From a virus (lineage: Duplodnaviria; Heunggongvirae; Uroviricota; Caudoviricetes), in IMG/VR virus record IMGVR_UViG_2521172734_000004, positions 1 through 7,811 of that record: a stretch of DNA of 7,811 nucleotides; one strand, given 5' to 3'. This document shows positions 5,827 through 7,811 of the stretch, in pieces. The notes under the pieces are model-generated. The model had not been told where the DNA came from. It worked only from the letters and a program-made list of their open reading frames with translations, and did not search any database. The position numbers and the translations under genes are program-made. Position 1 is the stretch's first letter, and the number at the start of each line of letters is the position of its first letter.

Positions 5827-7194
5827 ATGACAGTAAAAATTTCTGGCGTGCTTAAAGATGGCACAGGAAAACCAGTACAGAACTGCACCATTGTGCTGAA
5901 GGCCAGACGAACCAGCAGCACGGTGGTGGTGAACACGGTGGCCTCTGAAAATCCGGATGAAGCCGGACGTTACAGCATGGATGTTGAGCATGGTCAGTAC
6001 AGCGTCACCCTGCTGGTTGAAGGTTTTCCGCCTTCACATGCCGGGACCATCACCGTGTATGAAGATTCCCGACCCGGTACGCTGAATGATTTTCTCGGTG
6101 CCATGACGGAGGATGATGCCCGTCCTGAGGCACTGCGCCGTTTTGAACTGATGGTGGAAGAGGTGGTGCGTAACGCAGAGGAGGCGAAGAAGAATGCCGG
6201 AGAGGCGGAGACGTCAGCGAGGAATGCCGGCATATCAGCCAGTCAGGCAGAAGAGAGCGCTGCAAATGCTGACACTTCAGCAGGGGATGCATCGGAGTCA
6301 GCCCGGCAGGCGGCAGAAAGTGCAGCCTCAGCAAAGCAGTCAGAGGAGGCGTCCTCGTCCTCGGCCTCTGCGGCCGCTCAAAAAGCCAGTGAGTCATTAC
6401 AAAGTGCAACAGATGCTGAGTTGTCAAAAAAGACGGCAGAAAGTGCAGCCGGTAATGCAGCCAGGGATGCAACGACCGCAACAGAAAAAGCCCGGGAGTC
6501 AGCAGAAAGCGCACAGTCAGCGGAACAAAGCAGGATAGCGGCGGAAGAGGCCGTAAACCGAATCCCCACCGTGGTGGGACCTCCCGGGCCAAAGGGGGAA
6601 CCGGGGCCCGCGGGTCCTCAGGGGCCGAAGGGAGATAAAGGAGAGCGTGGCGACACCGGCCCGGCAGGGGCAACCGGTGAACGGGGGCCGGCAGGTGATG
6701 CTGGTCCGGCAGGCCCGCAGGGGCCGAAAGGCGACAGGGGAGAGACCGGTCTGACGGGAGCTGCAGGCCCGGCAGGGCCACAGGGACCGAAAGGGGATAC
6801 GGGAGCTGCAGGGCCGGCAGGGCCACAGGGACCGAAAGGGGATACGGGAGCTGCAGGCCCGGCAGGGCCACAGGGACCGAAAGGGGATGCAGGAGTCGCA
6901 GGTCCGGCAGGACCACAGGGACCATCCGGAAGCCCTGACAGCGGGCTGTTTGGTGTCGGTTCTTTTGTTCTTGCGGCGTATTACCAGACGTATTATTCGG
7001 GGGACCGTGCCCCTGGCTCAACTGTTGCCGGGTCATCACTGTCTGCATGCTGCCTTTCGAATGGTACTCCCCTGGTTGCTTCCGGTAATGTGGGGGAGAC
7101 CCGTTTACCGGGCACGTGGCGTGCATGTGGTCCGATGCTATGGACATCATCTCCGGGTATCAGACAGGCAGGATTATTTCAGCGCATATCATAG
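5827..7194 (+). CDS. stf: Side tail fiber protein with lambda Stf-like N-terminal domain, Ala/Ser/Glu-rich stalk, 40-triplet collagen-like domain and short Cys-containing C-terminal tip
   Basis: ORF 5827..7194 (455 aa) with GGTGG upstream of the ATG. The N-terminus [53 protein letters not shown]...[16 protein letters not shown] matches the N-terminus of lambda Stf as I recall it. An uninterrupted run of 40 GXY triplets ([26 protein letters not shown]...GPQGPSGSP) is encoded at nt 6577-6936. The stop TAG 7192-7194 lies inside the ribosome-binding site of the next ORF. Confidence 0.85.
6577..6936 (+). repeat. Collagen-like Gly-X-Y coding tract (40 triplets) within stf
   Basis: Direct translation of frame 1 gives glycine at every third residue for 120 consecutive codons, rich in Pro, Ala, Lys, Asp and Gln. 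Confidence 0.9.
6757..6891 (+). repeat. Three near-identical 45-bp tandem direct repeats (each encoding [16 protein letters not shown]) inside the collagen-like tract
   Basis: Copies at 6757-6801, 6802-6846 and 6847-6891 (ggagctgcaggcccggcagggccacagggaccgaaaggggatacg) differ by 1-2 nt. More degenerate copies flank them on both sides. Confidence 0.85.
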
Positions 7195-7202
7195 AGGAGG
7201 TC

Positions 7203-7811
7203 ATGGTGGATAAGGGAAAAGAGATTCTTGCAGTACGAAATGCAGCCAGCAACGAATATGGCGGGATAAACTGTGAGGTGCAGTTTGAAGACGCGGTGAA
7301 TGAAAAAGGGGAACAGGTATGGCTGCCGTATACTGCAACGGAAACGGATAATACAGAACACGGAAAAGCATTGTGGTCTGGGCTGACAGCAGGAACGTAC
7401 GGAAGTGTGAGTGCCTTTGTCGCCACGGAAGCAGTACTGGAAGCGGCAAAAGCGGCGAAAAGGGAAGAGATTAATATCTGGCGTGATGTGCAGGAGAATA
7501 TGGAATACATGATGGAATTCAACGGAAGGAACTGGGATTACGGCAAGAAGACGTTGTCCAGGATAAGCATGACACGCCTGATGGCAGAGAATAACCGTCT
7601 TCCGGAAGGTTTTGCCTGGACCGACGGGGATAATAATGTGGTGCCGGTGACGGCGGCAGACATCATAGCCCTGTCGGATGCGACAGAGCAGGCGATGTTT
7701 GCGAAGGGGGTGGAGATTAATACACGGCAGTTGCAGATGAAAGCAGAGGTTGAGGCGCTGACAGAGCTGAAGGCGATCCGCAGTTACGTTGTTGGATGGC
7801 CTGCAGGCTGA
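7203..7811 (+). CDS. Phage tail-fiber-associated protein, possibly a tail fiber assembly chaperone (assigned by position; function uncertain)
   Basis: ORF-track frame 7116..7811. A strong ribosome-binding site GAGGAGG (7194-7200) precedes ATG 7203 and GTG 7206. The product (MVDKGKEILAVRNAASNEYGG...LTELKAIRSYVVGWPAG*) is about 202 aa, acidic and soluble-looking, and sits where lambdoid phages carry tfa. I do not securely recognise the family. The stop TGA is the last three bases of the window. Start could instead be GTG 7116, ATG 7125, ATG 7140 or GTG 7206. Confidence 0.6.
   Translation: MVDKGKEILAVRNAASNEYGGINCEVQFEDAVNEKGEQVWLPYTATETDNTEHGKALWSGLTAGTYGSVSAFVATEAVLEAAKAAKREEINIWRDVQENMEYMMEFNGRNWDYGKKTLSRISMTRLMAENNRLPEGFAWTDGDNNVVPVTAADIIALSDATEQAMFAKGVEINTRQLQMKAEVEALTELKAIRSYVVGWPAG

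Follow-up and report, generated by a model that had tools for sequence, protein, structure and literature searches.

Results

A side tail-fibre gene is followed by a DUF4376 gene

The window, by which we mean the whole stretch of 7,811 nucleotides analysed here, is a 100% match to a lambdoid prophage of E. coli 55989 and forms the tail end of that prophage. It carries J, lom, stf and a gene for a DUF4376 protein, in this order and each as an intact ORF (Table 1). The stf product consists of an attachment domain (residues 1-133), an Ala/Glu/Ser-rich shaft, a collagen region and a tip. A Pfam search returned PF08400 on residues 1-133 (E=2.5e-68) and Collagen (E=1e-18), and phrog_3279 ('tail fiber protein') matched the protein with E=6e-136; with its PF08400 N-terminal domain and its place after J and lom, the gene is of the lambda Stf type. 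PGAP gives its coordinates as 5791-7194. Within the collagen-like region lies a 45-nt tandem repeat of 3.8 copies (6754-6923). Rare codons make up 5-12% of stf, taken over its full length, and of the DUF4376 gene, versus 2-2.5% of J or lom. A megablast search of a phage collection with the stf-DUF4376 junction gave no match.

Table 1. Features at the 3′ end of the window.
Feature	Position	Strand	Basis
stf, side tail-fibre gene, 455 aa	5827..7194	+	ORF, Pfam, phrog
Collagen-like region, 40 G-X-Y triplets	6577..6936	+	Collagen match
Distal tip domain, 85 aa	6937..7191	+	conservation, family HMM, AF2
Spurious upstream extension of the downstream ORF	7116..7202	+	window and L003 only
stf stop codon TAG	7192..7194	+	alignment; TGA in most relatives
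Shine-Dalgarno AGGAGG of the downstream gene	7195..7200	+	invariant GAGGAGG in all loci
DUF4376 gene, putative tail-fibre chaperone, 201-202 aa	7203..7811	+	PF14301, phrog_1141; chaperone role by analogy
N-terminal module, ~60-70 aa, three-strand beta sheet and helix	7203..7418	+	HMM, secondary structure
DUF4376 domain, helical body and beta hairpin	7443..7766	+	Pfam (residues 81-188), model

The stf fibre ends in a tip domain of a widespread family

Exactly 85 residues follow the collagen region, from DSGLFGVG to GLFQRIS, with Cys at tip positions 38, 39 and 63, which bears out a sequence-only reading of this DNA that had counted about 86 residues and three cysteines. The tip contains the motifs VGSF(V)LAA, PGxT(V) with the stretch that follows it, and GLFQRIS-stop, and an AF2 model (pLDDT 77, pTM 0.71) predicts a small six-strand beta domain. 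It is conserved in 11 of the 12 E. coli loci, where all three Cys and the C-terminal end are invariant, and every intact stf copy ends in ...FQRIS. The dN/dS ratio of the tip is 0.33 in the stf frame but 0.81 and 2.01 in the two remaining frames, which indicates purifying selection on the tip. The AGA, GGA, TTA and ATA codons are kept in the stf frame of homologues. Variable residues were found at 15 of 48 positions in predicted loops and at 5 of 37 elsewhere, which is a trend only (p=0.07). As no other globular domain follows the collagen shaft, the tip is presumed to be where the side tail fibre contacts its receptor.

Searches of Pfam, of NCBIfam and, with the single sequence, of PDB assigned the tip to no family, a word-indexed protein search with the tip as sole query gave near-identical fragments only, and an exhaustive search of representative proteins yielded just two informative relatives. 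The tip belongs to a widespread family that has no Pfam entry and whose HMM scores 75.8 bits on stf residues 373-455. Its members are 74-85 aa long, carry the motifs VGSF, AGSxL, GTWRxxG and LFQRIS-stop, and end 0-1 residue after the terminal RI(S/A); the window tip shows all of this, with GTWRACG instead of GTWRCMG. The family includes P0008 (45% identity), the C-termini of Mexia and PWKp16 gp37, ORF-401 of P-EibA, about 25 metagenomic proteins and fibres in about 300 Pbunavirus genomes. In a PDB sequence search, the family profile matched residues 850-961 of Pa193 gp47 with E=1.5e-24, and the window tip aligns end to end with the fibre C-termini of Pbunavirus and T4-like Klebsiella phages, through (F/W)xRI(S/A)-stop. 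A length of 74-85 residues is the normal size in this family, and the earlier concern that the tip is small for a receptor-binding one is unfounded. We also considered a conserved disulfide or metal site formed by the three Cys and rejected it: only the GTWR-adjacent Cys recurs family-wide, this residue is missing in some members, and the CC pair is lineage-specific.

The DUF4376 protein is a candidate tail-fibre chaperone

The DUF4376 gene lies directly 3′ of stf on the same strand, an arrangement kept in all homologous loci. Its product matches PF14301 (E=1e-16; 61.7 bits at a cut-off of 25), and its residues 4-201 align with positions 2-193 of the 194 positions of phrog_1141. In the AF2 model (pLDDT 92.6), helices at residues 76-99, 115-129 and 151-185 and a hairpin at residues 102-113 follow the N-terminal module. 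Caudo_TAP (PF02413) gave no match at E<=0.1, and we regard the protein as probably Tfa-like in action, not as a member of that family. In Alteromonas phage V22 and in Campylobacter CJIE1, proteins of the DUF4376 type are needed as tail-fibre chaperones (PMC7289586, PMC7882524); they are predicted to form trimeric caps, and a resemblance to the intramolecular chaperone domains of K1F and T5 has been proposed (PMC10579305). The Pfam match, read together with these three studies, supports the earlier proposal of the downstream protein as a candidate chaperone.

The gene after a family tip regularly opens with a shared N-module of ~60 aa, as judged from HMM matches. A DUF4376 protein is encoded directly downstream of a tip fibre in P-EibA, phiP27 and locus L016, and proteins with the N-module only occupy this place in F8 and loci L017 and L019-L021. 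The N-module HMM, built from enterobacterial proteins in an alignment that includes the window protein, scores 21-33 bits on partners that lack DUF4376, namely F8 gp045 and metagenomic proteins of 61-113 aa; it is negative on control proteins and weak (6.3 bits) on the Tfa of Mexia. We infer that the N-module is specific for the tip family and is the tip-binding part.

Besides being a chaperone, the DUF4376 protein could stay on the virion fibre tip and act there as the adhesin or a part of the adhesin, like T2 gp38 or the Tfa proteins of Mu and P2. Homologues are often labelled 'tail fiber protein' in database records, TfaMu stays bound to the fibre (PMC7882524), and the account in PMC12390725, which cites North & Davidson 2021, has the Mu and P2 Tfa proteins taking a direct part in LPS binding. 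We nevertheless consider such a role unlikely. Evolution is slower in the partner (dN/dS of 0.13) than in the tip (0.33), and two tip variants of ~31% identity are served by nearly the same DUF4376 protein, which would be unexpected of a specificity determinant; in the loci with the second variant (L014 and L015), a 17-nt spacer precedes a DUF4376 protein with the start position unchanged and with near-identity from residue ~9 onwards. Moreover, the chaperones of the Alteromonas phages are held to cap the fibre only transiently (PMC10579305), and virion proteomics of Pa193, as related in PMC12390725, did not detect the homologue of the N-module.

Tip and DUF4376 gene occur on different shafts

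Among the tip carriers, whose stf genes range from 1059 to 1440 nt, homology to the window starts inside the collagen-like region, and the window shaft (5976-6575) is common to no other carrier. The collagen-like region is likely to be a recombination substrate for swapping of the tip cassette. This agrees with one half of the earlier suggestion that the stf 3′ end is the remnant of a recombination: tip and DUF4376 gene do form a cassette found on different shafts through the collagen repeats. The other half does not hold, because the tip is complete and belongs to a widespread family.

It is very unlikely that the stf 3′ end is truncated or degenerate and leaves a fibre without a functional receptor-binding tip. 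Such a view could draw on the mosaic gene with its singular shaft, on the rarity of the tip in E. coli (33 of 5426 genomes) and on visible decay in some relatives, where the tip is frameshifted (L013), the DUF4376 gene is split (L002) or gpJ genes carry frameshifts. Against it stand the full alignment of the tip with the fibre ends of functional lytic Pbunavirus and T4-like Klebsiella phages, the purifying selection on the tip, and the cognate downstream partner, which is as intact in the window as J, lom and stf. The sequence comparisons point to the tip being a complete domain, conserved to its last residue, and not a remnant. Several carriers are prophages in decay, and hence no single strain, 55989 included, can be assumed to retain function.

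An extra A in the stf stop codon explains the apparent gene overlap

Upstream of the DUF4376 gene its frame stays open as far as 7089 and offers the start codons GTG 7116, ATG 7125 and ATG 7140, the last of which is the PGAP start in strain 55989. The sequence-only reading had correctly noted that this frame is open from 7116 and that it uses fewer rare codons than the stf frame, and had suggested that the downstream protein may start earlier and overlap stf. By our count, rare codons (CTA, AGA, GGA, TTA and ATA) occupy 5 of the last 25 stf codons, and 2 of 29 codons are rare in the alternative frame. In random sequence, 29-39 codons would run without a stop with a probability of about 0.15-0.25, and neither the open alternative frame nor the rare-codon pattern exceeds chance expectation.

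Compared with the window, 10 of 11 loci have a gap at position 7193, where the window and one related lineage (L003) carry an extra A that turns TCATGAGG into TCATAGAGG. With the insertion, the stf stop codon reads TAG instead of TGA and the frame relation of the two genes shifts, while neither protein is altered. Its carriers are two closely linked lineages that make up 14 of the 33 genomes, 10 of these being one clone. The A at 7193 happens to bring the downstream gene into phase with a +2 frame that is stop-free at the stf 3′ end; this misled both PGAP, with its start at 7140, and the earlier suggestion of an overlap. In 10 of the 12 loci the alternative-frame peptide is absent, as is any start codon upstream of the 7203/7206 equivalent; the frame relation differs there by 1 nt, so that the two genes do not qualify as a dual-coding pair. 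Across 7116..7202, dN/dS is 1.24 in the downstream-gene frame versus 0.48 in the stf frame, values that derive from only 13 variable sites and are weak on their own. Direct reading of the 5-12 nt before 7116, 7125 and 7140 revealed no Shine-Dalgarno sequence.

The AGGAGG motif adjoins the stf stop codon, 2 nt before ATG 7203 and 5 nt before GTG 7206. GTG 7206 is invariant among the aligned loci, and codon 7203 is ATG in the window, AGG in L005, L007 and L009, and GTG in L003; PGAP places the start at the 7203 or 7206 equivalent in most relatives. In an alignment of 30 DUF4376 homologues from E. coli, Salmonella, Citrobacter and Cronobacter (four genera), the N-termini fall between ~9 residues before and 23 residues after that of the window protein, most of them within 12 residues, and the phrog_1141 profile begins at this point as well. 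One Salmonella DUF4376 locus (L026) is a remnant disrupted by IS66.

Homologue comparison of both frames had been named beforehand as the refuting test, and its outcome went against the overlap: homologues keep the stf-frame C-terminus and start consistently at the 7203/7206 equivalent. A DUF4376 protein beginning at GTG 7116, ATG 7125 or ATG 7140, with a dual-frame segment of 55-80 nt and 21-29 extra N-terminal residues, is extremely improbable, since its three potential starts in a frame open from 7089, its fewer rare codons and a RefSeq model (7140-7811 in 55989 and L003) are set against its dependence on a 1-nt insertion in two closely linked lineages, the want of an upstream start in that frame at all other loci, a perfect Shine-Dalgarno sequence before 7203/7206 only, the alternative-frame dN/dS, no such extension in any homologue across the four genera, and a largest protein cluster of the 202-aa form with 445 members, compared with 6 for the 220-aa form. 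The alignments indicate that the junction is ordinary and the alternative frame a by-product of the single extra A; that the downstream gene is separate and starts at GTG 7206, or at ATG 7203 where present; and that the PGAP start at 7140 is likely mis-set. A programmed frameshift fusing stf to the downstream protein was rejected as well: a −1 shift would be needed in the window but +1 in the majority of relatives, and reading of 7116-7194 showed no slippery heptamer.

Discussion

We are highly confident in the overall reading of this locus, namely that stf encodes a fibre with a complete tip, that a separate gene for a putative two-part chaperone starts at 7206/7203, that the apparent overlap is an artefact of the insertion at 7193, and that tip and chaperone gene form a mobile cassette. 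The side tail fibre would end in the small beta-rich tip of 85 aa, which presumably contacts the receptor. Because AGGAGG abuts the stf stop codon and the start follows 5 nt on, the downstream gene is likely to be translated by coupling to stf. Its product would act as a two-part tail-fibre chaperone, whose N-module may dock on the trimeric tip and whose C-terminal helical DUF4376 domain may trimerise and fold the end of the fibre or cap it. Collagen-repeat recombination would carry the cassette of tip and chaperone from shaft to shaft.

A broader reading, towards which we lean only slightly, is that the 85-aa tip and the N-module of ~60 aa are a cognate and co-inherited 'tip plus cap' pair without a Pfam name. 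The pair would be distributed over lambdoid E. coli prophages, phiP27, Pbunavirus, marine and metagenomic phages and, weakly, T4-like Klebsiella phages, with the module either alone (61-83 aa) or fused to one of several interchangeable oligomerisation domains, among them DUF4376, a helical bundle and a C-terminus of Caudo_TAP-like type. Were this so, the minimal folding or capping function would sit in a small module, and the pair could be a compact, portable cassette for fibre retargeting.

RefSeq currently holds two incompatible gene models for one protein, a 7140 start with a 55-nt overlap in 55989 and L003, and a 7203/7206 start in the remaining relatives. Genomes of the O104:H4 outbreak lineage probably also carry the 7140-type model, as their match rows list both features. 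From the alignments, the short model is right and the long one is explained by the insertion at 7193. The locus is an example of how a silent indel in a stop codon/Shine-Dalgarno region can create a convincing but false overlapping ORF, and scans for overlapping genes should test for silent stop-codon indels. The Pfam-less tip family also ends the fibres of therapeutic Pbunavirus phages, and the recognisable partner module that regularly accompanies it is an aid to the annotation or engineering of receptor-binding proteins. Tip and chaperone are a cassette of a known kind, and the understanding of tail-fibre biology is unchanged.

Lambda Stf/Tfa and the Caudo_TAP tail-fibre assembly proteins (including phage Mu U) are among the closest known systems, and the gene order J-lom-stf-chaperone is common to the window and lambda. 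[quoted passage not shown] The partner in Klebsiella phage Mexia alone combines a weak N-module match with a weakly Caudo_TAP-like C-terminus.

In Alteromonas phages V22 (gp27) and A5 (gp9) and downstream of the CJIE1 H-fibre gene, the chaperone gene likewise lies directly 3′ of the fibre gene, and V22 gp27 and A5 gp9 have the same predicted architecture as the window protein, with beta strands at the N-terminus, a body made of helices and a beta hairpin in the centre. The Alteromonas fibre 'head' and chaperone N-terminus are, however, unrelated in sequence to the window tip and N-module, and the tip and N-module HMMs were negative on A5 gp8 and gp9. The converse applies to Pbunavirus, where Pa193 gp47 and F8 gp044 share the tip family with the window (PMC11456595, PMC12390725) and F8 gp045 shares the N-module (31.7 bits), whereas the partner has a different C-terminal helical bundle without DUF4376. 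The fibre itself is a 962-aa myovirus fibre without collagen, of which the cryo-EM model covers only residues 1-340 and hence not the tip (PMC11456595, PMC12390725). For Banzai_048, the Banzai homologue of F8 gp045, AlphaFold3 puts the N-domain on the fibre tip (PMC12390725).

Both halves of the window cassette recur together in two lambdoid or related E. coli phages, prophage P-EibA (ORF-401-like/ORF-191A, AF151091) and phiP27 (L56/L57), where a collagen fibre ending in the window's tip family has a DUF4376 partner. These tips are longer and more divergent (18 and 12 bits to the family HMM), and the partners share just 33-45% identity with the window protein. The P-EibA tip ends in GTWRAF...LTLFQRIV-stop and its DUF4376 gene follows after a 13-nt spacer, whereas the DUF4376 gene of phiP27 overlaps the fibre gene by 4 nt.

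The stf-chaperone junction

Alignment of the junction across twelve loci, whose tips diverge by up to 16%, showed that the window and the related prophage locus L003 carry ATATCATAGAGGAGG and that the remaining ten loci carry ATATCATGAGGAGG. The extra A at 7193 sits in the stf stop codon, changing TGA to TAG; stf ends in ...FQRIS with or without it, and the downstream protein is unaltered. Because A 7193 shifts the phase of the stf 3′ end relative to the downstream gene by one base, the 29-aa alternative-frame peptide and its three start codons are restricted to the window and L003 lineages. 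In the other ten loci, the in-phase upstream sequence reads YGHLLQVQ plus 13 further residues, and this frame contains no start codon upstream of the equivalent of 7203/7206. On this alignment, the alternative frame is a non-coding artefact of a one-base insertion. A 7193 occurs in 14 of 33 genomes (judged by alignment length), ten of which belong to the 55989/O104:H4 clone. The 98–99% identity of L003 to the window from about 7026 on, together with its divergence upstream, points to one insertion event, later spread by recombination, as the simplest history.

The description given by the sequence-only reading proved accurate: in stf, 40 G-X-Y triplets precede exactly 85 residues, with three tip cysteines (tip positions 38, 39 and 63); the downstream frame has no stop as far back as 7089 and includes GTG 7116, ATG 7125 and ATG 7140; and the final 25 stf codons include the rare codons CTA, AGA, GGA, TTA and ATA. 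A stop-free run of 29–39 codons has a chance of ~0.15–0.25, and rare codons make up 5–12% throughout stf and the DUF4376 gene versus 2% in J; the open frame and the rare codons at the stf end are not statistically remarkable.

Pooled Nei-Gojobori estimates for eleven intact loci gave a dN/dS for the tip of 0.33 in the stf frame, versus 0.81 and 2.01 in the other frames, with variable sites distributed 18/9/31 over the codon positions. The corresponding values for the overlap stretch were 0.48 in the stf frame and 1.24 in the window's alternative frame, with 13 variable sites only, of which the indel argument is independent; for the DUF4376 gene they were 0.13 in the gene frame and 1.82 and 2.72 in the others.

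Start of the downstream gene

GAGGAGG is invariant across the compared loci, as is GTG 7206, which lies 5 nt downstream of AGGAGG; at codon 7203, most loci have ATG, L003 has GTG, and L005, L007 and L009 have AGG. Read directly, the sequence has no Shine-Dalgarno motif ahead of 7116, 7125 or 7140. PGAP places the start at the equivalent of 7203 or 7206 in every locus without A 7193, and at 7140 only where A 7193 makes a long ORF. Two loci with a more distant variant (L014 and L015) have a different tip and a 17-nt spacer carrying its own GAGGAGG; their DUF4376 protein begins MAETVTGVIAVRNAA and, once past about residue 9, is almost identical to that of the window. In an alignment with the window protein, thirty homologues (E. 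coli, Salmonella, Citrobacter and Cronobacter) start from ~9 residues earlier to 23 later, most within 12, and none has a 21–29-residue N-terminal extension. Position 2 of the PHROG profile aligns to residue 4 of the window protein, and by cluster size the 202-aa form dominates (445 member sequences versus 6 for a 220-aa form). Because the N-module, the first ~60 aa of the downstream protein, begins within the first 1–7 residues in all N-module proteins compared, the N-terminus is independently placed at 7203/7206. RefSeq most likely errs in starting the gene at 7140; the junction is ordinary, probably with translational coupling. The proposal that the downstream protein begins earlier and overlaps stf is thus refuted by the evidence that the sequence-only reading had itself named as decisive, namely amino-acid conservation in the stf frame and a consistent downstream start, and by the one-base indel.

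Coordinates of features in the window and in compared loci
Feature	Locus	Position
J	window	1613-5008
lom	window	5076-5675
Terminator-like hairpin	window	5779-5808
stf	window	5827-7194
Ala/Glu/Ser-rich shaft	window	5976-6575
G-X-Y triplets	window	6577-6936
45-nt tandem repeat	window	6754-6923
Tip	window	6937-7191
Alternative frame	window	7116-7202
GAGGAGG	window	7194-7200
N-module	window	7203-7418
Downstream ORF	window	end at 7811
N-module	L024	2242-2667
N-module	L017	4354-4602
N-module	L019	3417-3608
N-module	L020	3444-3629
N-module	L021	506-847
Two tandem DUF4376 genes	L005 (STEC299)	2326-4112
Second of these genes	L005 (STEC299)	3441-4112
Split DUF4376 gene	L002	2823-3431
Neighbours of prophage end, in listing order: tRNA-Ser, hya	L001	9075-9630
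ykgJ, potB	L003	3075-3404
truncated ompW, yciE	L004	3313-3444

Origin and mosaicism of the fibre

E. coli 55989 (NC_011748.1) matches 932 bases across the stf/downstream junction at 100%. Of 5426 complete E. coli genomes, 33 carry related copies (84–99% identity), always on the chromosome, and the phage collection contained no close DNA match. The annotation shows the distal part of a lambdoid prophage, running from tape measure and M/L/K/I-like genes through gpJ, lom and a 'prophage tail fiber N-terminal domain' protein to the DUF4376 protein and then host genes. Closely related prophage ends lie at different chromosomal sites, which means that the prophages carrying the tail module differ in integration specificity. 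PGAP starts stf at 5791, within a strong terminator-like hairpin after lom (13-bp stem and T-run). Because the Met at 5827 pairs with PF08400 profile position 1, RefSeq probably starts stf 12 codons too early.

In lom and the initial 150 nt of stf, the window resembles other tip carriers. Its shaft is matched at the DNA level in none of the other loci with this tip, and homology resumes within the collagen repeats and extends through the whole DUF4376 gene. The 55989 fibre is a mosaic of attachment domain, unique shaft, collagen and shared tip-chaperone cassette. The tandem repeat comprises 3.8 copies (93% identity) encoding 15-residue collagen units, and its copy number evidently varies among homologues, because stf length ranges from 1059 to 1440 nt among tip-family carriers. 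In L015, the L014-type cassette sits on a fibre of another type. Together, these observations indicate that tip and chaperone form a cassette exchanged through the collagen repeats; the earlier proposal of recombination is right to that extent, though the word 'remnant' is not, the tip being complete. Decay was seen in relatives: a 1-nt deletion at the equivalent of 7092 cuts the L013 tip to 66 aa, the L002 DUF4376 gene is split into two ORFs, and gpJ is frameshifted in L002, L004 and L013.

The tip family

The 85-residue tip had no Pfam, NCBIfam or single-sequence PDB match. By tblastn, the whole tip matched the C-termini of distal long-tail-fibre proteins of the T4-like Klebsiella phages Mexia and PWKp16 (33–35% identity), and an exhaustive protein search added an E. 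coli stf of 652 aa whose tip is 45% identical. Against PDB sequences, a profile of these tips matched Pseudomonas phage Pa193 tail fibre gp47 (E=1.8e-6; E=1.5e-24 with a larger profile), of which residues 1–340 alone are modelled (PMC11456595). Some 300 Pbunavirus genomes, together with phages of Celeribacter, Lentibacter and Marinomonas, have the Pa193-type tip, and a profile search of a large protein database added ~25 metagenomic proteins of 90–150 aa with the same C-terminal domain. The C-terminus of P-EibA ORF-401 is a tip-family domain, as, more weakly, is that of phiP27 L56; the Alteromonas fibre head did not match the tip HMM. Members share VG(S/T)(Y/F), PGxTxAGSxL, (L)xGTWR(C)(M)G and L(F/W)xRI(S/A), with the stop 0–1 residue after the last. 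Since the domain has 74–85 residues everywhere, the window tip is complete and normal-sized, and the claim that it is small for a receptor-binding tip does not hold. The only Cys to recur is the one beside GTWR, which is offset by one position in the window and missing in some members, and the CC pair is confined to this lineage; these patterns do not support a conserved disulfide or metal site.

The partner protein

Residues 81–188 of the downstream protein match Pfam DUF4376 (PF14301; E=1e-16). In every case examined, the product of the gene directly 3′ of a tip-family member opens with a common N-module of ~55–60 aa (...RNPxYNxxGxIxCEV...(W/I)P(F/Y)TAxxDxxxHGRx(I/L)(Y/F)...). It is joined to DUF4376 in the window, P-EibA ORF-191A, phiP27 L57 and the metagenomic L016, and occurs without DUF4376 in Pbunavirus F8 gp045 (142 aa) and in metagenomic proteins of 61, 63, 83 and 113 aa. 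An HMM built solely from residues 1–72 of the enterobacterial proteins scored 21–33 bits on the proteins without DUF4376 and only 6.3 bits on Mexia Tfa; the controls Alteromonas A5 gp9 and phiP27 L55 Tfa were negative. The N-module has no Pfam name and stands alone (61–83 aa) or fused to DUF4376 or other C-terminal domains. Its occurrence alone or variously fused after tip-family fibres suggests that it is a minimal cognate tip-binding unit.

STEC299 has two tandem DUF4376 genes after one stf, the second of 672 nt, and the Salmonella locus L026 has two adjacent DUF4376 genes beside an IS66 element. That the DUF4376 partner also stays on the tip and is not solely a transient chaperone seems unlikely, as the tip evolves faster than this partner does, and almost the same partner serves two tip variants sharing only ~31% identity.

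The F8 gp045 homologue was undetected in Pa193 virions, and for the homologue in phage Banzai AlphaFold3 predicts a trimer-on-trimer complex in which the N-terminal domain lies on the tip of the fibre (PMC12390725). From this model, the pairing of the tip family with the N-module and the HMM scores, we infer that the N-module docks specifically on the tip and that DUF4376 is an exchangeable part for oligomerisation or capping. In Alteromonas phage V22 and the Campylobacter CJIE1 prophage, DUF4376 proteins encoded just after the fibre genes are experimentally required chaperones, and predictions have DUF4376 chaperones capping the end of the fibre as trimers (PMC7289586, PMC7882524, PMC10579305).
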